From Perna viridis (taxonomy: Eukaryota): DNA of 64,000 bases. The translations under genes and the position numbers were made by a program. The stretch's first letter is position 1, and the number at the start of each line of letters is the position of its first letter. The notes below the pieces were generated by a model that did no database searches, was not told the DNA's origin, and saw only the letters and a program-made list of their open reading frames with translations. The stretch is from positions 35,870,664 to 35,934,663 of the forward strand of contig CM074520.1 of assembly GCA_037379345.1 (NCBI GenBank), in the 5' to 3' direction. This document shows, in pieces, positions 6,734 through 41,834 of the stretch.

Positions 6734-7186
6734 ATCAACTTTTTCAAACTATTGGAAGTTGAACATATGCCTTTTAACTGAGAGATAATACAGCCTAATA
6801 AGTCATACTTATCATGTTTAATCTTATATAACAATATTACTAACTTACCTCAGTTCTACTTTAAATTTGTTTATCAACCGTGTTTACTATAATCACCGCT
6901 TTGGATTAAGGAACGGGTTTAACGGGATGTAAAATGTATATAAGAAAAAATAACAATTTAGTATGATCTGGCGACTTTTATTTATAAGTATTGCCATCTT
7001 TTCCCTAACATTAAGCATTAACGACGGAAATCCCTTTATTTGCGCAGTCTTGGCTTATTTTATTTTTTTTAAATTGAGAACTTTGTTTTTATTTATAACG
7101 GCATCAAATGCTTGTAACAGATTGCTATGTAAGTTCTGTAGAAACGTATTCTTAAAACATTTATTTTTTTCAGCTGCTGGTATAAA

Positions 7187-7971
7187 ATGGCTCAAATACC
7201 TACTCAAAATCACTGTGAGATGTGCATGAATGCATGTGGAAACGATTACTGTCTGGACTGTAACCAGTATTTTTGTCACAACTGCAAAACAAGTCACCTT
7301 AGAATTGCTGTGTGCAAGAACCACCGATTTAAGTCATCTGGTCTCGCCACTTCCGATCCCAATGTGTTCTGCCAAGACCACAACGACTCATTTGTCTTTA
7401 TATGTGATGAATGTCAACTTCCGGTTTGCAGACAATGTACAGTGAAAACACACAGAGGACACTTGATGGCAGATATAGCAGAAACTGTAGCGAGCCGAAA
7501 GTCAGATTTTCTGTCGTCGATAAGATCAACTCTTGAAGGGGATGATGCAAAACATTTAGATGATGTCGCCCGACATATAGATGATCGTATATCGAAACTA
7601 GATGTCCATGAGGCTGAAACCGTTCGTGATATTCGGGAAGATGGAGAAGCAATTAAAAGCACTATAGACAATATTGTTAAGGAGTTAGAAAAAGATCTGA
7701 TTAATCAAACGACTGAACGAAAGAAAGAGCTTAAAAAATCTCTCCAGGAAACACAGAAAACAAAAGATTTAATGACAAATATGCGTTCTAAAGAACAAGA
7801 AATAAGAACTAGTCGAGAAACTATAGCATTACTTGGCGAAATGAAGCAGCTAGAAGGAACCTTCAGCAAACTGAAAATTCCCGACGTACAGGAGCCGTCG
7901 GTCGTCTTTTACCGTGCTGCTCAGAGAAGCAGTGATGCCGTCAGAGATCTAATGGGAAGACTTGTCATCAG
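7187..7971 (+). CDS. Coding exon 1 of RING-less TRIM-like protein: B-box1, B-box2, coiled coil
   Basis: CEMC..YCLDCNQYFCHNCKTSH..CKNH and CQDH..ICDECQLPVCRQCTVKTHRGH, then a heptad-rich helix; acceptor TTTTCAG just before the ATG; donor AG|GTAGGT at 7972, phase 2. Confidence 0.9.
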
Positions 7972-8360
7972 GTAGGTATTAAAAACTTGTACAAGTACAT
8001 GTACCATCCAATAAGAGTGAGTTGGAATTATAGGATAATATGGATTAATTGCATGCATATTTTCGAATATCGTTATAAATAATTCAATTTGTCACGTTTT
8101 AGGTACATGTAGTTGATTATACATTTTGAAGTACAAATGTGTGCCTACAATACTCATAACAGTTCAATTCAATAACAAGTTTTTGGAAAAGTTATTTTTC
8201 TTGATATCACTAATGAAAAGATAAGTTTAACTTGCTTTGTTGCACAAATGTTATGGTAGTAACCGAATATCTGACATCGTGCAGTAGAAAATAACCTTAA
8301 CTTCCAACATATACATGTAAACACGTTTCGTCATTTTTAATAGTCCACCTGGTCACTCAG

Positions 8361-9523
8361 TTTTGCTCACCTGGTCGAAGGTCATGTGAGCTATTGCCAT
8401 CACTTGACGTCCGTCGTCGTTAACAATTATACAAAACTCTTCTCCTCTGACACTACTTGACCAATTAAAACCAAACTTGGAATGAATGTTCTTGGGGTAT
8501 CCTGCATAGAACTGGTATAGATATTTTAGATCCGTCAAAAACATGGCCGTTGTTACTAAAAATAGAACATAGGGTCAGACAGAAGTTTTTCGCATATATC
8601 TACAAAACCGTTATGTTTACCTAAATCCTGACTGCGCAAGAGTTCAGTATGATGAAATCTATCTGGGGTCAAACTTTTGTTGTAATCCGTTAAGCCATGT
8701 TGGAGTTATTGCCCTTTTTCGACGTTTTTTTGCTATTGTTGATGTTCATTCTTTAAAAATCTTCTCCTCTGACACTACTCGACCAACTGGAACCAAACTT
8801 GGTATGAATGTTCTTTCGGGTATCCTGCATAGAACTAATTTGGGGATTTATGATCGATTGAAAAACATGACCGCTGTTACTAAAAATAGAACATAGGAGT
8901 TAGACAGTAGTTTTTGGCATATATCTCCAAAACCGTTAGGTTTAGCCACATTCTGACATGAATAAAAGGGTTCTGCATAATGAGATATATCTGTGGTCAA
9001 ATGTTCATTTTAACCTGGTAAGCCATGTTGGAGTTATTGCCCTTTTTCGACTTTTTGTTTTTGGCTATTTTTAATGTTGTTTCTTTCAAATATCTTCTCC
9101 TCTGACCCTACTCCATCAATTGGAACCAAACGTGGTATAAATGTTCCTTGGGGCATCATGCATAGAACTGACAGTAGTTTTTCGCTTATTATATCTCCAA
9201 AACCTTTAGGTTGAGCCAAATTCTTTATTATTATTAGGCCTACAAAAGTCACAAAGGTATCGGAAGTTGTCAGACAACTGCACTTGAAAGATGGAAAATG
9301 AAAATTATATGGTTTTTGTTTATTTTTACAGCTTTCAGCCAATATCTTGAAAACTATAAAAGATATAAAAAAAACCTTTCAATTGCTGAAATGATCCTCA
9401 TGATAAGTCCTACCAAAGTCTTCCTTGAGTCAAAATTGTTGGACAACTCCTTGTTACATTTATTGCCCTTGAAAGACAAAATTTAACCAGGTATGCGATT
9501 CAGGCTCCTGGGAGCCTCTTGTT
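8361..9523 (+). mobile_element. Non-autonomous Helitron/Helentron-type element (HINE) in the TRIM intron
   Basis: 5' GCTCACCTGG..GTGAGC hairpin followed by CGTCGTCG; internal repeats of TCTTCTCCTCTGAC..AACCAAAC; 3' hairpin AGGCTCCTGGGAGCCT+CTTGTT; related to 40674-41413. Confidence 0.75.
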
Positions 9524-9595
9524 ATTTAATCAAATTGTTGACTGTTATGCATTTCTATTTCAAATCCTTAATAGGTGATACAAAATATAAATATG

Positions 9596-9710
9596 TTATT
9601 ACATGGCATTTCCCATATCGCCTCGATCCTGATCAGTTCTCGACTACGGCGCGGGCTTGAGATGGTAGTCATGGGCTGATACCATGGGCGAAATGGAAAA
9701 TGCTATGCAC
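9596..9710. repeat. Short palindromic MITE-like hairpin
   Basis: GCATTTCCCATATCGCC versus GGCGAAATGGAAAATGC inverted arms. Confidence 0.45.
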
Positions 9711-10504
9711 ACCCAACCTTTAAAATTATAACCTCAAGTTGCCCCATTGACTGCTGTAAAGGCTTTCTTCCATAACTCGTTCTATCTTTGAGACAAAAAA
9801 AAATCCTACCTGATTAATCTAACCGATTCTTTTCGTTATACTTAAAGATGTAGATGTAGTTTGTGACAGTCCGGAACATAGAAGTATAACGTAGAAGAAA
9901 GTTTTTCTTACGCGTTTAAATTTACAGTTTATAAAATATGATAAAACGTGGGAATGACATAGTAGAACGAAGTTATTAATGAAGGCATAAATATACTTAG
10001 TGAAAAAAAAACGGGCAAGTCTATTTATACTAAGGATACATGTAATCAGGAGATATCTCTATTGCATTTGAAGATTTGTAGATGCCTTCCATTGGGATGG
10101 GTTTGACGGTCGCTGATTAAGTTTACTGGCGACTGTTATATCTAGAAAAAAAGTTATTTGCCTATCCGTTCATCCTGGAAACTGTATTTTTAAACATTTC
10201 AAAATAACGCCTGTAGCATTTAGGAACGGAGAATCAGTTTAATCCACAATAGTGATTAATGACGATGTGGTGGTTCTGGTTTCAACAAATAGTTTGTTGT
10301 TTCCTTTTTAGTTTTCTTGGTTTCGTATCCCTTGGCATTTTAGTTTATGATACAAATATCACTATATTTAAAGTAGATTTCGCTTCCATTTACAAATACT
10401 ATTGTTTAATTTTATGAAACAAAATGTGAATTCAGTTCTGAAAAAAATCAGTCAATAATTTCTTATAATTCTATGATATCTATACTGTGTTGTTTTTTTT
10501 TCAG

Positions 10505-11570
10505 TGTTGTGAAGCCGATTATAGTTCAGAAAGAAAAGGTCTTAAGCGGCCAAGTATTTGACAGGATGCTAAGCCATGGTACGCAATTCCGAAACGGGTT
10601 TCAACAACTGACCAATCAACTAAAAATCAAGAAAGTACAAGATGACAACCAAGCACTTATTGCATTCTACAGGATACAAACGGTGAATAAATTCAATACA
10701 AACTGTCCAAAGAAGGTTAACATTTTATTAGAATTCGACGAAGATAGTCCATGGCAGCGTCTAGTAACAGACACCACTGCAGTTTTGGGTCAGGCTGCGC
10801 CCGGTTTAGAATTTTATTTCGTCCGCGAACAAAGCGAAGCAGATATACTTGTTCGCGAAAATACTGCTGCACGAGAAAATACAAGAATTTATTGGGAACA
10901 ATCCGGCGAAACTTATAAAGCTATTATCTCCCTTTGTGCCCGGAACTCCGTTAGAACATCTATGCTTTCCACAATCTGTATGCTTGAACTTTTGTATGCG
11001 CTTGGTTTCCACTACAAAATGATGCAGTTGTTCTGCACTCTTGCATCTTTATCTGATGGCAGTGCAGATCACCAGACTATCCAGAGATTTGATCCATATA
11101 GCTTATTACTTTTTGGAAGTAATGTACTTATTGATGACTCCACATGGGAGCTACACATTAGGGATGTCAAAAGTATTAATCTTAGTGAAATGGACAAAGT
11201 AATGCTCAACTTACTTTTCCCGCCATGCTTGACCAAATCATATAATCCGCAGCTAAGCGACGTGACGTCAATGTTGTACTGTGGACGTAGGGTCATGGAG
11301 GATCACAATAGACCGGAACGATCGCACACCGACGGGAGATGTGGCCCAACCAATGGGGCAAACTGCCCGGCATGCCGTACGCTTATTGAACCAAAAAAGA
11401 ATAAAATAGCTTCTATTCTAGCTGGGGGTAGATTTCAGGGTTGGAGTGGCGATGTTTACTGCTACAAACAAAATAATATTGGTCCCTTTCGTAGCGCTAA
11501 AACACGAATGCGTGTATGTGGCCCAAATTTTGGTGAACCTTGTTCATCTTGCTATGGTTTGATTTTGTAA
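10505..11570 (+). CDS. Coding exon 2 of the TRIM-like protein: degenerate astacin/metzincin-like domain plus duplicated Cys-rich motif (total protein 616 aa)
   Basis: Acceptor T-tract+CAG at 10504, phase 2 compatible with exon 1; LELLYALGFHYK, FDPYSLLLFGS, LSEMDKVMLNLLFPPC; CGPTNGANCPAC and CGPNFGEPCSSC. Confidence 0.85.
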
Positions 11571-11656
11571 TTCACATTTAGAAAAAAAGATATTGTATTG
11601 TGTATTTTAATACGAAGTTATTCAATAATCATGGGTGGGTGCTGTTTAATTGTTGA

Positions 11657-12907
11657 TACGGGGCACCGAATGGGGCTAGATCTTTTTGTGATCAAAATTA
11701 ATTTTGTGAGACAAAAGTCTATTTTGTGTCACAAAATTCAATTTTGTGGAACAAAATTCACTTTTGTGAGACAGATAAGATTCAATTTTGTGTCGCAAAA
11801 TTCAATTCTGTGTCACAAAAGTCAATTCTGTGCCACAAAATTCAATTATGTGAGACAAAATTCAATTTCGTCGTAAAAGTCAATTTTGTATGCAAATTAG
11901 TTTACAGAATCCTTTGGATATGCAAATTAATTCAAAATGTGCAGCATCATGTACACGTGTATTACAAACTTAAAGCAGTGGATATGGTTCGAATGTGTAC
12001 GGTTATAATAAAGCTCATAAGCGAAAGAAATGTCAGATATCGTAATCGTATTACCGACTGTGTCACTTAATCTTGAATCTGAAGATAGATTGTTTGAGCG
12101 TTAATCAAAAGGGAAACGTAAGTTAGACACGTACAATGTACTATATTGGATTTTAATCTCGCCCGACCTGTTCCACTCAACCGAATTTCTTGTGTCATAC
12201 ATCAATAAAATCGGAATGAAATAAGGAATCTATCTATATCTGGCAAAAATTTGGTTGCGATTAACAGGTCGGGCAAAGCATTCTATAGTTGAATTGAAAG
12301 ATGTCAGGTAATGATCATGTGATTCACCAGGAGAAATCCCAATAAATCGAGAGTAGAAAAATCGCGTGTTTTAAAACCTCTTTTATCGAACAAATTTCAT
12401 AGAAAACGTATAATAGCAATTTTAGTCATTTCAAAACAGTTTTACTGTAGAAACAACTTGAAAGATATTTTTTGCAATTTCACCTAAAACGGCCTTATTA
12501 ACCGTCCTGCGTTGCTCGAAGTAATCGGAAACCTGCGGTTACTATATCCAATGAGAATCTTTACAAAATCGTGATGAGAGAATTCATTTGCATATTCAAA
12601 GATTCTGTAAACAAATTTGCGTACAAAATTGACTTTTTCGACAAAATTCAATTTTGTCTCACAAATTTTAATTTTGTGACACAAAGTTGAATTTTGTCTC
12701 ACAAAATTGACTTTTGAGACACAAAACAGTCTCACAAATTTGATTTTTGTGACACCGAATTGAATTTTGTGTCACAGAATTGACTTTTGTGACACAAAAT
12801 TGAAAATCTGTAGTATTTTATAAATTTTGTTAATCTGAATTCACTTTTGTCTGTGCAAATTTTAATTTTGAGTACAAAACCGGAGGAGCCCCATTCGGCG
12901 TCCCGTA
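11657..12907. mobile_element. Foldback-like non-autonomous DNA transposon with subterminal ~21-bp tandem repeats
   Basis: TIRs TACGGGGCACCGAATGGGGCT / AGCCCCATTCGGCGTCCCGTA; inverted arrays of TTCAATTTTGTGTCACAAAA at both ends. Confidence 0.8.
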
Positions 12908-16265: not shown

Positions 16266-19200
16266 CTCTTTGTTAGACTTGATTATTACTAACGATATTC
16301 ATAGTCTAGTCTACTCCGGAGTTGGCCCACCGCTTATGGCTGAAAACCACTAATTCCACTTCCCATAGGCTTCTATGCTAATTTCACAATATTCAATGGC
16401 TTCTCTGGACTTTACCTTAACTTTAACCTGCAGAGGACTATATATCAGCATGATTCTACATATGTCAGCTCACAATCCTCAGAATGGCATGTGGGGTTAG
16501 CAGACTTCCAGTGCAGTACTGGTCACCGGAAGTGAAGGGTCTATAAATAGCATGGGAAATCTCAGTGTTTTCACAAGATAGGGGTATATTTAAAAATCAT
16601 TATGGAGATTAGGCTTCACATCACAAGAAGCAAAATGCACCTATAAAATGTACAGAAATGTTTTTCCTTTCAGAAACTGTTTAAATTTTTTAAATAAGAT
16701 GAGAACTTTTTTCACAGCACTATGACGAACAGGGGTAATTTCTGCGTAGGACTATTTTTGCGTACGTTCCAAATGCTCATTGGTTGAATTGGTGGTCTGT
16801 AACTTATTGACCAAATTCGATACCATTGTTCTGTAATTGGATTTATAAATTGCCCCAAAATACACTCGAAGTCATTTAAGCGCAAGGTCTGGATGTATGA
16901 CCAAGGAAATTATGAAGATTTCAATAATATTCTACGTCGAGTAGACTGGGACACTTTTTTGAGACGGAAGATATTGATTTTATAACCAATAAAATTACAA
17001 AGAGTATTATAGAAGCAGCCGACGCTGCCATTCCTAACAGAATTATCACGGTTCGCAAGAGTAGTCCGCGTTGGCTTACTAGCGATATACGGAAAAACAT
17101 TCGTAAAAAAAAAACAGAATTCATAGAAAGGCGAAAAAATTTAATCGCGACTCTGTTTGGGCAAAATTTCGAAGGATTCGTAATATTGTGAATAGTATGG
17201 CGCGATCAACAAAAGACAGCCATAATAATGAATTGATTAGTAAACTTGTTAATGAAAACCCGTCTAATACCAATTGGTGGCATACTGTTAACCAAATATC
17301 TGAGATTAAAGGGGTTGAATCTAGTTTTCCACCGCTGATAAAGGGGGTAATGCTATATTTGACGATCTCGACACGGCAAATGAGTTTAATAATTATTTTG
17401 CATCTCAAGTCAGGGTCGATGACTCCAATAAGAATCTTCCAGATTTTCCGGGGAACGCCGGGAGTATGTTTGATAGCATTATACTCAATGAAAATGAAAT
17501 TGAGGATGTGGTGTCAGTTTTAAACTCGTCGAAGGCTTCAGGTCCAGACCTTATCAGTCCAAGATTACTGAAAAAGGGTGCCACTGTTTTAAAGTATCCA
17601 TTATGCAAACTTTTTAATCCATCCCTTCGTATTGGCAACTATCCTTCTAGTTGGAAAAGAGCGAATGTTACTCCCGTCTACAAAAGTAAGGCTCCAAACG
17701 AGGTAGAAAACTATCGCCCTACATCCCTGCTTAGTGCTGTCTCTAAGTGCATGGAGCGATGTGTACATAAACATGTCCATAATTATTTACTTAGTAATAG
17801 TTTATTGACAAAACATCAGTCTGGATTTTCTAAGGGGGACTCGGCAATTAATCAACTTATAGATGTATCAAATAACTTTGGGAAAGCTTTGGATAGTGGA
17901 AAAGAAATTAGGGTAGTATTCTGTGATATCAGTAAGGCATTCGATAGAGTTTGGCACAAGGGTCTTCTCTTTAAACTTATGCATCTGGGAATTTCGGGTA
18001 AACTACTGGATTGGTTCAAAAAGCTATCTTTCAGGGAGAATCCAAAGGGTTGTTTTAAACGGTTCACACTCAGAGTGGCAACCAGTAAAAGCTGGGGTTC
18101 CTCAGGAATCAATACTTGGACCCTTGTTATTTCTTATTTTCATTAATGACATTATTACTGAAATTAATTCTGTCATTAAGCTTTTTGCGGATGATACTAC
18201 CTTATATATGGTGGTTGACAACCCAAATGAATCTGCTACTGTTCTGAACGGGGATATTGAGAAAATAAACAAATGGGCATCTACATGGTTGGTTACATTT
18301 AACCCACATAAAACAGAATCACTTGTTGTATCTAGAAAACTGAATAAACCTGATCATCCTCCACTCGTTATGGCTAATCAACAAATAAAAAATGTTTCTA
18401 GTCACAAACACCTCGGTGTCATTTTCTCCAGTGATGGTCTATGGCACAGTCATATAGATTATGTCTTTGCTAAAGCCTATAAGAGATTGAATATTTTGAA
18501 AAAATTAAAGTTTTTGCTTAATCAGTTTACACTAGAAAAAATTTATATCTCTTTTATACGCCCCATCCTAGAGTATGCGGATGTAATTTGGGATACAAAA
18601 AATTTAGGTCAGATGGATAAAGTTGAAAATATACAACTTGAAGCAGCCAGGATAGTTACAGGTGGGACCAAATTGACCTCACACCAAAATCTGTACACCG
18701 AAACTCACTGGGAAAAACTGACGGACAGACGGAAAAACCACAGACTGTTGTTATTCCATAAGATATTAAATGGGAAAACACCGCAATATCTGACAGATCT
18801 AATACCAGATACTGTTGGAGTTCTACACAACCACAACACGCGTCAGACAAACAATATTCAGGAAGTGAGAACAAGAACAAATTTTATTCAGATTATTTTC
18901 TTCCGTCTACAAAAAAAGACTGGAATACTTTGCCTTCCGAGTTACGAAATACTGAATCTGTTGCCTCCTTTAAACGTCAGTTGTCAAATCAAAATAGAAA
19001 GACCCCATCTTACTATTACTCTGGTTGTAGACTTGGTCAGATCCTACACGTCTCAGAATGCATTGCAGTTCCCTAAATGAGCATCTCTTCCTAAAACATT
19101 TATCTGATTCACCAAGATGTATTTGTGGGCACATAGAAACAGTTGAACATTTCACCTTACACTGTCGAAGATATGCTACTATAAGACAAGATATGTTTAA

Positions 19201-19707
19201 TGCTATGACAGATTGTAATATCAATGTTAGGATTGATACGAGCTTATTTATCTATGGATCTATGCAGCTATCAGATGAACAAAACTCTATGGTTTTTAAG
19301 CTTTTCAAGAAATTCATTCTGGAAAGTAAAAGGTTTAAAACATAACTTAATTGTTATTGATACTCATACATTCGTACATTTATTTACTTATTTGAAAAAA
19401 TTATAATATTTTTTTTCTCTCTTCTCTTGGAAATTTACTGATTATTCCAATATATACATTTCTTTTTGTAATTGTTTTCCTTCACTTTATTTTTTCAACT
19501 GAATTCTTTACAAGTTCTTGAACTGTGCTATATTTTATTCAATGTATTTGTCATTGAGCATGCAAAAAATGTCAATCATATCATGCTGGTTCTTATGGAG
19601 ACAGATTTATAAAAGCATAACTATGCTTGTTTCTGGATCCTATATCTATTATATTTGTATGTATGTTATCACCTTTACGACTATATGAAATAAAATATGT
19701 TTAAACT
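16266..19707 (+). mobile_element. 5'-truncated CR1-clade LINE (APE C-terminus, RT, C-terminal Zn knuckle), frameshifted
   Basis: SLLDLIITN..RYHC endonuclease end; KASGPD, YRPTSLL, FCDISKAFDRVWH, GVPQESILGP, LFADD; CICGHIETVEHFTLHC; AATAAA near the 3' end; 12-bp TSD AATGTTACAACT at 16254-16265 and 19708-19719. Confidence 0.93.
16338..16804. mobile_element. MITE nested in the CR1 LINE endonuclease region
   Basis: Flanked by direct repeat (CT)TAT; imperfect TIRs ACCACTAATTC / GAATTGGTGGT; removing it restores the frame PPL-IDQIRYHC. Confidence 0.7.
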
Positions 19708-20641
19708 AATGTTACAACTAACCACAAACATCTTTATTTAAATAGTGATACTCCTTCAACTAAAGTTGAGTCTTTCAGTGTGGTTATATCAAAGAAAAAA
19801 CGAAGACAATTCTGATTATCACGCCTTAATTTTAAATACAACGTTTATATTTTTAGAGAACAATTTGATCTTTAAAATTTGCAACATGTTACATTAAAAC
19901 TGAATTACGCAATTTGTCGATTGAATGTGTTTCTAAAAGGGGGGTATAATATCATCTAAAGATTACATTGATTGAGACTTGGATCATCACCCGGAACCAG
20001 TCAATACTGACTGTCTGGTTTATTAAGAATACAGTAAAAAGGTTTGAAATGCTAAAAGTCAATATACAGGTACAGTATATAATCGTCATTTAAAATGTTG
20101 AAATTTACCAAAACATATATGATTTTATAAGTCATATTTACAGAATAAAGTAAATAGATATAATAAGCCTATCAATTCTGAATTAGTACACCATTTCTTC
20201 CTACCAGTTGGCGTTCTTCGTATCCATGGAACTTAACAATTGAAATATTACTTGTATGCAAACCAAGTTCTTTTAATCACTATGCATGGCTTAAGCTCGT
20301 AGGTGTGAATGAATAAAGCTAACATTCCCCATAAATAACTAAAGAAATGGCTGAATTCTCGTACTGCAAGTTAACCCTGATGTTATTCTGTAACACTTCC
20401 GAAATATTCTAACAGATACAATAATTTAAATTTTTAATATTTTAATGGGATCGATTTCGTAATGAGGAAGTAACTCGTACTGGTAAGTTAACATTGTTAA
20501 ATACACTACGTTTGTGACGTATTTAACCAAATCATTCATACGAGTATTTAGCTAAACAATACGTATAAAGAGCTATCTGGGTTCCCATTGTACGCTGTGC
20601 AAATATTATGTGTTTGATGTGTAAGTTTTGAACAGTATGTT

Positions 20642-21672
20642 ATGGTGCAGGAGTTTACAACCGAAGTGTCAGCGTTTTACACAAGGAACGTTACATGTAG
20701 TAACAGTATTAACTTGACAAGTACTAATTCGTCAGGAATCACGGATTATGAATCATTAAAGACAGCGACAAAATGGATATGGATTGTAATTTCTCCCATT
20801 ATTTTCGTCTTTGGTATCGTTGGAAATTTTGGAATATTTATAGTCCTTTTTCGGATGGAAAAGTTAAAGCGAATCACTTACAAACTACTGCTAGTTCTAG
20901 CATTTTCTGACTCTGTCGTGCTTGTGACTGGACTGAGTCGAGGATGGATTCAGAATACATTTGATATCGACGTCCGTAAACTTTCCGACGTCGGGTGTAG
21001 AATTAATGTGTTCATAACATATTTTTCTATGCATTTTTCGTCCTGGACTTTAGTGTGTATTTGTTTAGAAAGATTCGTAAAAACAAAATTTCCTTTCCAA
21101 TACAACAGAACAAAATTTTCATTGATTCTCAATACCGTGTATGGTGTTTTCATTTTTCTAAGTTTAGGTATTGACTTACCATTGATTCCAATCAATGGTT
21201 TGGTGATTGAAGGGAACGAGACAATCTGTACTAACACTAAACCAGAATTCTATAGGTACGAAGAAAAAATATTTGTTTTTATTGACTTAGTTTGGCTTTC
21301 ACTGTTACCCTTCTGTCTAATGCTTATAATGAACATCTTTATTGGAGGTGTTCTTCGTAACTCAAGCCTGTTGCGAGAATCATTTATTCATAATGGGGGC
21401 AAAGGCAAGTGCTTGAGAAAAAGCAAAAGTTTAACACGAATGTTCTATGTAACCAGTTTCTACTTTTTAATAACGACGCTTCCGATACAAATACACTTCA
21501 CCGTCGATTCTTTCATACATAAGGATGACTTTACTGTTAGCCTTCTTAAATTGCTGAGAGCCGTGTTATATTTGTTCCAGTTCACAAACTATGCTGCAAA
21601 TTTCTATATCTATGCCAAAGTAAATAAGAAATTTCGAAGAACATTAATTGCGATGTTTAAAAAGCAACGATC
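20642..21672 (+). CDS. Class A (rhodopsin-like) GPCR paralog 1, 7TM exon (FMRFamide/sex-peptide-receptor/GPR139-like group)
   Basis: N-glycosylated N-terminus, GIVGN, LAFSD, CLERF, LLPF, TTLP, NYAANFYIY; the ORF stop overlaps a perfect donor TC|GTAAGT at 21673. Confidence 0.92.
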
Positions 21673-21693
21673 GTAAGTAGTTATATCTTTACT

Positions 21694-28475: not shown

Positions 28476-29220
28476 GAATCGGCAATATAGCGTAACAATA
28501 CCTTTCTTACAAGTAAAAGTTGGTTTGTGTGTGAATAAAAATGACTTGCATAAATACGCATTGACATAATCCCCACATGCATTCTCGTTATAGTTATTTA
28601 TAAAATTAATTTAACTTGTTATCAGTTTTTTATGAAATTGAACCATTATGAAATAAAAAAAAATTAATGCTTTTTTTTTCACTTTTATCGGTACTTCAGA
28701 TGCCCCATAAAATGATACGCAGGCCCTATTTTTAGTCTTTGAAAAATTTGGTCATTAAAAACAGGATTTTTCCATATATTGTCTAATTAATTGCGAAATT
28801 GACAGGTAATCAAAGCGAATCCACTAAAAATAATCATTAATGGCAAAAAAGTTTAAAGTTTTGTCAATGAAAACGCATCGTGTGTGATCTGCAAACATAA
28901 CCGGAATAATTGGTCCACATATATTGAAACATGTCTTTTGAGAAGCACAAAGCCTTGCACAGTTAGATAAAATCATAATTATAATGGTTTTGTGTTGTAG
29001 ATTTGATATTTATAATGTTTTTTCCTGAAAAATAAATCATTTCATCGTCATAACATTATTGAATTCCCTGCATTCAAGATCGTGGTTAATAAATATTTTT
29101 TTTAAATTGATTTTGCATGATTTCAATTAGTTGCACCGAGAAAACGTTTGGAAGAGATGAAGTAATTTTTATCACGTAAGTTGTGTTATCAAAGTGAAAA
29201 TGTTCTCACTGCAATGCAGA

Positions 29221-29554
29221 ATGGTTGAGTGTTTGAAACGTAAATATATTTTCTCTCTTGTGCTTATTTTGCATATGAATTTTTCAAATCCGAACGAGTT
29301 AATACGATCAACGGTGGCTGGTCGAAATCCTGATATGAACAACATTTACATAGAAAATGAAGAAATAATTCTCTTGTCAGTCAAAAGTGGAAGTGCTATA
29401 TCGTGCATTGTATCTTGTATAAGGTATTGCTCATGTGGCAGTGTTGCATTTAATGAACAAGACGGCAGGTGTTTCGGTTACTATAAAAACTCAGTTAATA
29501 CTTCCGCCGAGAATGTGACGGATGCTGATTGGAAGTACTTTGATTTGCTGTTTG
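29221..29554 (+). CDS. PAN/apple-kringle protein 1, exon 1 (signal peptide + PAN domain)
   Basis: Hydrophobic N-terminus; SCIVSCIRYCSCGSVAFNEQDGRC; donor G|GTAAGT at 29555, phase 1; start chosen by collinearity with the paralog (27 aa before IRSTVAGRN in both). Confidence 0.82.
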
Positions 29555-29994
29555 GTAAGTCGGAAAATTTAACAATAATATTTCTAGATCACGGTTAAAA
29601 CTCAATAAACTTATCAACACGATAGTGGGCTACAAGTATTACAAACATCATGATTATAACACAGAAAAAAACAACAGACACCATTTTAGAACAAAAATAG
29701 TCAGTCATTGTCATTGTCACTGTAGATATGCACTCCAATACTGTAATAGTATCATCAGTAATTAAAGAGCATTTATCTTTAATTAAATAATCATAAGCAA
29801 TTCTGCTTGGCTTTAGTTTTGAAAAGTAACCACAATGTTCAACTTTTTTCGTCTCTTCGTGTTTCAGTTGTTTATTTGTCGCTATTAGAATAACAGAGTG
29901 TTGTTTCTTATGACAGAACTTTGTCCTCTTATAATAAACAAACCAATTAAAGTTGATCTTCCTACTTACGTTGTCATGGCAATATCTATTTCAG

Positions 29995-30257
29995 AAATGG
30001 AATGCAAGACAACATCAACAGGTACTGAATACAAAGGATCTTTGAATGTTACTATAACAGGAAGGACTTGTCAGAGATGGAATACTAATACGCCCCACTA
30101 CATTTTTGAAGCTAACAGAATGACTGAAGATGACAAAAACTATTGTCGAAATCCTGATAACGAGAACGGTGGACCCTGGTGTCATACTACAGATCCGGGT
30201 ATGAGATGGGAATATTGCAATGTTGCAATGTGTACATGTGTACACTCGAATAAATAA
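29995..30257 (+). CDS. PAN/apple-kringle protein 1, exon 2 (kringle; total 198 aa)
   Basis: Acceptor TTTCAG, phase 1; EYKG..TGRTCQRW..NYCRNPD..GGPWCHTTDP..RWEYC. Confidence 0.88.
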
Positions 30258-39610: not shown

Positions 39611-40267
39611 AAATTAATTTTAGTAACTAAATACAACGAGTAAATCATTAAAAAGGTTGATGACGTCATAATCGCATTCCACAATTTGGTCCATGAGATG
39701 ATGGACAAAATTGTTTATCCAATCAGAAAACGTGTTAATTCTGAAATTAAATTATCAAGTAGGGAATTATCCCTTTGCGCAAGTTCTGAAGGGTATATGT
39801 CAAGTAAAAAGCTTATGGAATTAGATAACAGTACATGCAAAATTACCGGATTTAAAAAAAAAAACATGTACACTTGTAGTGAAAGTCTTTGAGGTAAAAC
39901 AAAGCCTTGAACACTTTGATGAAATCATTATTGTAATAGTTATGAATTGTTTTTTAGATATTAATTGTATTTCTAACTTAGACAGAAAGTAAAGGAATAT
40001 TTGTATTTCTGCTTTGCTTTGTTTGGTAAGAGTTGAAGAAAATTCAATAAGGTATCGCGAAATAAGACTTTTAAATACTGAGCAAATAGGAAAAAAACGT
40101 AGTTGCTATATTAAAAATAAAAGTACACATGTTGTCACGATCTCGGTACATAAAATACTGGAATTGATTGGGCTAGGCTCATTATAGAAGTAATTGGTAG
40201 CTTAAAGGGTTGAGTTAGAAAAATAGAGATTTATATTTACGGACAGTAGATTATCATAGCATACAAA

Positions 40268-40598
40268 ATGATCGTTTGGAAAAATCTAACTACTTTTTTC
40301 TTTTGTTCATATATTATGTCAACGATTTTTCCAAAAATGAATGCAATGATACGATCAACAGTTGCAGGAAGGAACACCCTGTTAGACAATATTTTTGTAC
40401 CGAATAGTGAGGGTATCATCATATCAACGCAAAGTCGAAGCAATATTTTGTGTCTAGCATCTTGTTTAGAATATTGTTCCTGTCGCAGTGTAGTGTATAA
40501 TATACATGACAGAAGCTGTTTTGGTTTGGATAGAACCTTATTCAACACCGCTGATTCTTTCACAGATAATGGTTGGAAGTACACCGAGTTGCGATTTG
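40268..40598 (+). CDS. PAN/apple-kringle protein 2, exon 1 (signal peptide + PAN domain)
   Basis: Paralog of 29221-29554 (IRSTVAGRN; LCLASCLEYCSCRSVVYNIHDRSC); donor G|GTGAGA at 40599, phase 1. Confidence 0.85.
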
Positions 40599-40673
40599 GT
40601 GAGAATACTTTAAACAAATACAAAATATAAATTAACAGGAGCTTTAAAAATATGTTTTAATGTTAACAATTAA

Positions 40674-41413
40674 AACTAGGGGCTCAAGAGAGCCTGAATC
40701 GCTCACCTGGTTAACCATTTGCTTATTTGAAAAACTTTAGGAATGAGGCAAGCTAAGTCAAAATCAACTAAAATTATTCATAGCATTTTCATGACCTGAA
40801 CCAGAATTTTGCTAAAGGCAACAATTTTTGAATTTTTTTCAAAAACCTGTCTTGTGACCCCTAAGTTTCATTTTTAGTATAGGCAGCCATATCTATTCAC
40901 AGATTAAAAAATCACAACAGTCATTTTGAGCACAATACACTAAAGAACTATTATGTTTACTTTCATTCAATGATCTTAAATTGTTTTAGAGAAGAAGATT
41001 TTCAAAGTTGCACATGTGAAAAATGCAAAAATAAACTGTTTCAGGGGTCGTAACTCCTACATCAGTTGACCAATCATTTTGAAAATTTGGGCATAGGTCC
41101 ATCTCATTATGCTGAACAATATTATTCGTGCCAGAAATATGCTAACGGCAACGGTTTTTGAGTTATTTTAAAAAAACTGCAATCTGACCCCTATGTTCTA
41201 TTTTTAGTAACATCAGCCATGTTTTGTCATGGATCAAAAATCCCAACGGCCATTTTGTGTGGGATACCCTAAGAAACAATCATGTCAAGTTTAAAACCTG
41301 TCAGTTTAGTAGTTTTTGAGGAGAAGATTTTTAAATTTGTCCACGACAACGACGACGACGGACGCCAAGTGATGGCATAAGCTCACTTGGCCTTCGGCCA
41401 GGTGAGCTAAAAA
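40674..41413 (-). mobile_element. Non-autonomous Helitron/Helentron-type element (HINE) in the PAN-kringle 2 intron
   Basis: AACTAGGGGCTCAAGAGAGCC hairpin, subterminal GCTCACCTGG / CCAGGTGAGC, (GAC)n tract. Confidence 0.8.
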
Positions 41414-41586
41414 GGAATAAAAGGTTACATAAAAAATATAAGAAACAAAAAAGAAAAAAGAAACTTAAAAGCAATTCAGCAGACAGATGTATCTTACTTT
41501 TTATCCATAAGACTCCGCTCTTCATGAACAGGGCATAAAAATCCTTGTAGTCGTTACACATTACATTAACATTTTCGCTTTTTCAG

Positions 41587-41834
41587 AGCTGCAATGCAAG
41601 ACTACACAAGCAGGGATTGAATATTTAGGAAGAATAAATGTTACTGTATCTGGAAGGACCTGTAAGAGATGGGATTCTCCCTATCCCCATGGTACATTTT
41701 TCATTGAACTTCTTGGAGCTGATGAAAACTACTGTCGAAATCCCGACAGTAGTTCCGGTGGTCCTTGGTGTTATACCATGGACCCGGATGTGAGGTGGGA
41801 ATTCTGCAATATAGAAATGTGCAGATGTAAATAA
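41587..41834 (+). CDS. PAN/apple-kringle protein 2, exon 2 (kringle; total 192 aa); absent from the ORF track
   Basis: Acceptor TTTTCAG, phase 1; LQCKTTQAGIEYLGRINVTVSGRTCKRWDSPYPH..NYCRNPDSSSGGPWCYTMDPDVRWEFCNIEMCRCK*. Confidence 0.88.

Follow-up and report, generated by a model that had tools for sequence, protein, structure and literature searches.

A captured, apparently inactive astacin-like domain behind a RING-less TRIM-type exon in the mussel Perna viridis

We describe a TRIM-type gene of the mussel Perna viridis in which an exon for two B-boxes and a predicted coiled coil is spliced to a second exon that holds a whole captured astacin-like gene, whose metzincin domain has lost its metal ligands and is followed by two cysteine-rich repeats of a type also found in HERC2. 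The gene lies on the + strand at 7187..11570 of a 64,000-nucleotide (nt) stretch of genomic DNA (GenBank assembly GCA_037379345.1, contig CM074520.1, positions 35,870,664 to 35,934,663), hereafter the window. Comparison of the sequences indicates that the fusion arose once, in a mussel ancestor, and that its donor was likely a family of intracellular metzincins.

The fusion gene and its TRIM-type scaffold

The reading frame opens with an ATG at 7187 and closes with a stop at 11570, and its two exons give 1851 nt, or 616 amino acids (aa), with a single stop, in agreement with a sequence-only reading of the locus that had proposed an intact spliced frame of this length. The first coding exon begins with a short untranslated start (7174..7186, behind an acceptor AG at 7172-7173), and its coding part (7187..7971; 261 codons plus 2 nt) ends at a donor (AG/GT, 7971/7972), from which a phase-2 GT..AG intron (7972..10504) leads to the acceptor (CAG/T, 10504/10505). 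The coding part of exon 2 (10505..11570) comprises the whole captured gene, from N-terminal helices through the dead metzincin and both cysteine-rich repeats to the stop, and the 3' untranslated region (11571..11734), in which contigs end at 11634-11734, runs into a 20-nt tandem array. The join 7971^10505 postulated by that reading, which skips 2533 nt between GT and AG, is present in contigs of all four RNA-like runs in which it was traced, from four studies, and in three further RNA-like runs both exons lie within one contig at adjoining record positions; the exons are thus spliced together in seven of seven such runs, which are presumed to be RNA although no record types them so. One DNA-sized run (X15) yields a contig (9499-11723) that crosses the acceptor unspliced. 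Contigs start at 7171 and are preceded by 17-30 unplaced letters, as expected if a short exon of at least 17-30 nt lies upstream; this exon was not placed on the genome. An assembly or annotation artefact as the origin of the fusion was rejected.

The description of the gene as RING-less also holds: Pfam finds no RING in the 616-aa frame, none occurs in the six full-length relatives, and no RING-like motif is present on the + strand over 17 kb upstream of the gene. B-box1 (aa 10-47; 7214..7327) is recognized by its Cys/His pattern and by 70-76% identity to orthologues, with no separate Pfam stretch, while B-box2 (aa 60-93; 7364..7465) matches PF00643 above the cutoff (E 3.1e-9). The coiled coil (about aa 98-245; 7478..7921), which the earlier reading had listed on a par with the B-boxes, is predicted from position and helical composition. 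All of these features lie on the + strand.

This exon belongs to a large family. It has 107 matches among 146 scored candidates in the P. viridis genome, about 20 of them close, and a phase-2 donor lies at the same place in most of the 15 close sister copies inspected. About 20 RING-less B-box/coiled-coil exons (L024-L043) lie on G000:C10 at 13.9-14.2 Mb and 37.9-38.6 Mb and also on C5, C9, C11, C12 and C14; one of them, L025, has a TRIM_CC match in Pfam that falls below the cutoff, and instead reads on into a short Cys/His-rich tail. The 9-29 kb downstream of 20 sister loci contained only repeats, without any long or shared coding exon, and no shared 3' coding exon emerged among 14 loci compared mutually and nine looked up in a cluster table. 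Because the 3' exons of the sister genes were not found, a general domain-capture system that uses such exons is only possible.

Several repeats accompany the gene. The intron holds a high-copy dispersed repeat (about 8380-9530), inside which a 328-bp unit is tandemly repeated 2.3 times and which is very deep in all runs, and two arrays of 20-nt units, apparently in opposite orientation, lie at 11684-11889 and 12623-12804. At 11695-11700, A>G differences appear in four contigs and may represent alleles or fold-back editing.

A dead metzincin from an apparently intracellular family

The dead metzincin domain (10701..11228, + strand; residues 66-241 of the exon product, P0001) was delimited by fold comparison and a family profile. 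It ends near 11228, at residue 241, where a separate cysteine-rich module made up of the last 110 residues follows; the sequence-only reading had overlooked this module, which is the best-conserved part of the exon between lineages. Searched directly against Pfam and PDB sequences, exon 2 itself gave no astacin match, and two ESM Atlas look-ups gave no usable match. PF01400 is present in 29 of 37 exon-2 homologues, and a profile of these homologues matches hatching enzymes, meprins and astacin (E 3e-10 to 7e-8).

The metzincin landmarks that had been picked out from the letters are supported by an AlphaFold2 model of exon 2 (pTM 0.79), in which the five-stranded sheet, backing helix, active-site helix and C-terminal helix are all present. 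In VIA-align, this model matches MMP-9 (Z 9.4, 3.4 A, 142 aligned), snapalysin (Z 8.7), myroilysin (Z 8.3) and astacin (Z 7.7, 6.3 A, 149 aligned), and ADAM22 is also among the fold-search matches. In Foldseek, the best E-values fall to side domains of GH20 glycosidases, with low TM-scores, followed by metzincins (E 0.005-0.03), and GH20 side domains are interspersed with metzincins in the fold ranking. Because the fold scores are modest and these GH20 matches occur, the assignment rests on sequence and fold jointly: exon 2 is an astacin-like metzincin as judged by an indirect sequence relationship together with the predicted fold.

Little remains of the metal site. In the remnant zinc motif (10983..11018, + strand), where LELLYALGFHYK aligns to the HExxHxxGxxHE of relatives, the first, second and third zinc-binding histidines (His1 to His3) are replaced by Leu, Tyr and Tyr and the family Glu by Lys, and the Gly is kept; in the remnant Met-turn (11091..11117, + strand), Met is replaced by Leu and the zinc-binding Tyr by Phe. 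The three lost histidines, the altered astacin Glu and Met-turn Met, and the codons CTT, TAT, TAC and AAA had all been described correctly before. Three further features had been missed, namely that the catalytic Glu is retained (GAA, 10986), that the zinc-binding Tyr is lost, and that about 10 residues are absent after His3, where ExxRxDRD is absent as well.

The inactivation is old. In a quick tree of 101 rows that cover the domain (29 ids that were redundant or partial were excluded, as was every row that does not cover it), the 11 zinc-less rows group as a single clade (SH-aLRT 100, stem 0.74), which is nested in a weakly supported group (87) that also holds the active mussel paralogues. 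All 11 rows carry His1→Leu and Met→Leu and have lost the zinc Tyr, and a recent inactivation was therefore rejected; that several of the replaced codons lie one base from their ancestral form, as had been pointed out, is no sign of recent loss. His2 is still His in three of the 11 rows, as is His3, and the catalytic Glu is kept in five and is Pro or Ala in six. Alignment and tree together indicate that the metal site was lost a single time, on the stem, and that the other ligands drifted later. The loop from His3 to the DP motif measures 26-27 residues in the dead clade, whereas the median for 83 active rows is 36. The cleft region shows many clade-specific changes, with conserved residues near the old cleft, and a helix is predicted after the old His3 (alignment and model); both features speak against a simple substrate trap. 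Among the other 90 rows, His1 is kept in 88, Glu in 87, His2 in 89, His3 in 86, Met in 83 and Tyr in 85; the full zinc motif is missing from seven rows outside the clade, and thus it is not unusual for an individual copy in the astacin-like family to decay. The catalytic Glu kept in five rows, and a His just before the old His3 in several, could be taken to mean that the fused domain is still an enzyme that works through migrated ligands or other chemistry. This is highly improbable, given Pro or Ala in place of the Glu in the other six rows and no alternative set of ligands common to the clade.

The relatives that retain the zinc motif point to the likely intracellular nature of the donor family. 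Specifically, a strict CaaX end occurs in 11 of 81 active relatives (0.2 expected by shuffling, although several of the 11 are closely related), and a hydrophobic N-terminus in two of the 81 on a crude scale, whereas no active relative has the FxGDI prodomain motif. Among these relatives, the Cys columns number only two, both part-filled (29 and 58 of 83), the columns of astacin Cys42 and Cys84 hold other residues in the family profile, and full ExxRxDRD occurs in four of 83 relatives, with ExxRxD in 59. The firm cases for an absent signal peptide are the annotated Mytilus copies P0076-P0079 (379-380 aa), which have no signal-like stretch at their start and terminate in CVIL. In foraminifera, members of the family are also fused to a caspase, and fusions to ubiquitin-like domains occur elsewhere. 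A secreted astacin as donor was rejected on these grounds (no visible signal peptide, FxGDI or disulfide pairs in the relatives, and CaaX in some).

These properties set the family apart from the astacins (M12A, PF01400) as reviewed in 2023. The fold, the helix order and the positions of HExxHxxGxxH(E) and the Met-turn are common to both, and the relatives score above the PF01400 cutoff, but the available parts of that review describe astacins as extracellular, with a signal peptide, an FxGDI prodomain, two or three disulfides and ExxRxDRD, and the words "B-box" and "cytosol" are absent from its main text (PMC9848320). In contrast, the donor family lacks a visible signal peptide, FxGDI and disulfide pairs and often ends in CaaX, and the fusion has, in addition, lost all metal ligands. 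Hence, the earlier suggestion of a cytosolic pseudo-protease on a TRIM scaffold stands as to the dead site and, as likely, the compartment, but it misleads in setting this against secreted astacins, since the donor family, too, appears to be intracellular.

Paralogues with an intact HExxH, for which the earlier reading had suggested a search, were found both in P. viridis (L002, G000:C14:28123376-28124383; L003, C14:28172687-28173655), which also holds broken copies (L004, L005), and in Mytilus (P0076-P0079). The dead domain could bind such an active cytosolic paralogue directly and inhibit, activate or relocate the protease. The coexistence of the two forms, the group that they share in the tree, and a C-terminal helix and Cys module that hardly vary between dead and active rows would fit such a regulator. 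However, the fusion is only 30% identical to its nearest own paralogue and oligomerisation of the astacin-like family is hypothetical, and we regard direct regulation as quite unlikely. A complex prediction of the dead module with L002 scored 0.00, with alignments not used and a poorly folded partner, and speaks neither for nor against binding; a single-sequence fold of the active P0076 reached a pLDDT of 30. Pseudoproteases that regulate active proteases include cFLIP and the iRhoms.

Cysteine-rich repeats and conservation of the fusion

Both repeats of the Cys module lie on the + strand. Repeat 1 (11262..11384) is an intact HERC2-type repeat (YC...CGP...C..C) that scores 72 bits with the repeat profile, and repeat 2 (11439..11555) is degenerate, with four Cys kept, 22 bits and a pLDDT under 50. 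The profile, which was built solely from non-fused proteases (142 repeats), finds four or five copies in each of the RING proteins P0179, P0221, P0206 and P0203, and four in a ROC-GTPase protein. It also finds one repeat in the 5' exon of P. viridis HERC2 (L071:186-431; G000:C10 near 10058200, 10.058 Mb), at 32 bits versus 7.3 for the best of 2888 background frames. This copy lies near the N-terminus, and the exons that follow it code for RCC1 repeats, cytochrome b5, Mib-HERC2, UBA-like and CPH domains; the best match among solved structures is human HERC2. The N-terminal region of HERC2 thus has one copy of the repeat in common with the fusion, although the copy in HERC2 contains additional Cys and is part of a giant ligase. 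The repeat corresponds to no Pfam family, and it presumably binds zinc, because its four Cys are invariant.

Beyond P. viridis, where it is single copy, the fusion is represented by six other full-length proteins of 595-606 aa (P0004, P0085, P0239, P0240, P0242 and P0053), five of them named as Mytilus, and databases label the orthologues uncharacterised. The orthologues include M. edulis XP_071125076.1 and M. trossulus XP_063413705.1, one protein each from M. californianus and M. galloprovincialis, and two Logan proteins, and Mytilus has several diverged copies. A metagenome scan with P0003 gave no match and one with A1 gave 12 loci but no close orthologue; among 1309 candidates, no relative exceeded 620 aa, although such proteins do exist.

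Identity to orthologues between lineages is 63-76% for the B-boxes, 32-40% for the coiled coil, 32-39% for the metzincin core and 51-66% for the Cys module. These figures bear on whether the B-box/coiled coil (or the Cys repeat) alone matters, with the metzincin a folded spacer that has no binding role: the rate of divergence of the metzincin core equals that of the coiled coil, an isoform of the orthologue annotated in M. edulis (XP_071125078.1; P0224, 316 aa) is without the captured module, and one duplicate (P0086/P0231), with Cys replaced, is apparently decaying. Nevertheless, all three lineages retain the open frame and the fold, and 40 of 175 core positions are invariant across seven full-length sequences. 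In addition, the dead metzincin shows 88.3% identity between M. californianus and M. galloprovincialis, and the domain of the active paralogue 91.4%, a comparison of protein identity, not of dN/dS, that fits purifying selection. A mere passenger therefore seems distinctly doubtful.

Predicted role and wider relevance

We favor, as a tentative proposal that falls just short of probable, a RING-less, TRIM-type, cytosolic, dimeric adaptor that does not cut and that binds partners through the captured module. In this model, a duplicate of a likely cytosolic metzincin gene would have landed behind a B-box/coiled-coil exon with a phase-2 donor, after which it would have lost about 10 residues of the lower subdomain, together with His1, the zinc Tyr and the Met of the Met-turn, before the lineages split. 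The coiled coil would form an antiparallel dimer and the B-boxes would oligomerise, as in other TRIMs, and the dimer would display two heads of dead metzincin and Cys repeats, which may bind partners of the kind engaged by active paralogues or by HERC2-type repeats. Since the fusion has no RING, the adaptor would hold these partners or hand them over to a RING-bearing TRIM or another ligase. The old cleft looks remodelled, and thus binding through the Cys repeat and new surfaces is likelier than the trapping of substrates in the cleft.

This proposal is favored because, in general, TRIM coiled coils dimerise, B-boxes oligomerise and C-terminal domains bind partners, and because TRIMs without ligase activity can regulate active TRIMs through the coiled coil, as described in the available parts of a review (PMC11992055). 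The "unclassified" RING-less TRIMs described there share with the fusion two B-boxes, a predicted coiled coil, no RING and a variable C-terminal module, which in the fusion consists, by contrast, of a dead metzincin and Cys-rich repeats.

Alternatively, the fusion could be an integrated immune decoy, in which the dead domain would resemble its active cytosolic paralogues closely enough to be bound by an effector or inhibitor that a pathogen directs at them, whereupon clustering of the TRIM scaffold would trigger a response. The exon family with its shared phase-2 donor, the diverged Mytilus copies (in the pair P0004/P0085 the B-boxes are 97.6% identical versus 81% for the Cys module) and the fusions of the donor module to caspase and ubiquitin-like domains would all accord with a decoy, as would the listing of a B-box orthogroup as expanded in bivalves in the part of the source at hand (PMC8382680). 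However, a decoy should keep the surface of the enzyme that it mimics, and the cleft region has many clade-specific changes; moreover, the fusion is single copy in P. viridis, and its steady presence in unchallenged-looking runs of seven studies is uninformative on induction. We therefore consider a decoy unlikely. Host genes captured behind immune-type scaffolds are familiar from TRIMCyp and the integrated decoys of plant NLRs. A whole host gene behind an immune-type scaffold exon is what the fusion has in common with them; it differs in having no RING, a hypothetical target and pathogen sensing, and a captured enzyme that is dead.

Several observations weigh against the adaptor and the history that we propose for it. 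First, the fold search places MMPs above astacin, with modest Z-scores, and the 11 rows of the dead clade represent only three independent lineages. Second, the frames of L002 and L003 end without a CaaX box, and most rows of the donor family are gene calls on raw contigs, such that first exons encoding signal peptides could be missing. Third, the 5' end of the transcript is unmapped, and an upstream coding exon is therefore formally possible. Fourth, within Mytilus pairs the Cys module is 81-87% identical and the metzincin 88-90%, which weakens the case for the Cys module as the sole working end; as repeat 2 is also degenerate, the module is not clearly the working end, and its conservation between lineages may reflect just metal binding. 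Finally, the adaptor's binding partner is hypothetical.

A zincin fold without catalysis, presumably used for binding, has precedents. ADAM22 is a non-catalytic metzincin. Bacterial iSTAND2 effectors contain inactive zincin-like domains, according to the available part of the source (PMC8195603). The fusion differs from both in subfamily, compartment and scaffold, and the similarity seen is at the level of the fold. In the literature searched, which covered few subscription journals, we found no description of a B-box-astacin fusion, of an intracellular CaaX astacin family or of the Cys-rich repeat.

Elsewhere in the window, Pfam identifies two single-exon frames for rhodopsin-family G-protein-coupled receptors (20618-21676 and 55810-56871) and a tandem pair of genes, each with PAN and Kringle domains (29161-30257 and 40250-41834), and a frameshifted remnant of a LINE-like reverse transcriptase lies at 17107-19345 (translation judged by eye).

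A broader possibility, which we hold to be somewhat unlikely but worth stating, is that animals and protists possess an undescribed intracellular, often prenylated astacin-like branch tied to the ubiquitin system by the HERC2-type repeat, and that mussels made a TRIM sensor from one captured and killed copy, which would be the bait or guard for that pathway. Regardless, the fusion adds a pseudo-protease to the known C-terminal modules of TRIMs, provides a clean example of a captured gene that then lost its catalytic activity, and exposes an unnamed Cys-rich repeat common to an astacin-like family, RING proteins and mussel HERC2. The donor family is the more far-reaching lead, as it would break the review-level rule, as given in the available parts of that review, that astacins are extracellular (PMC9848320).

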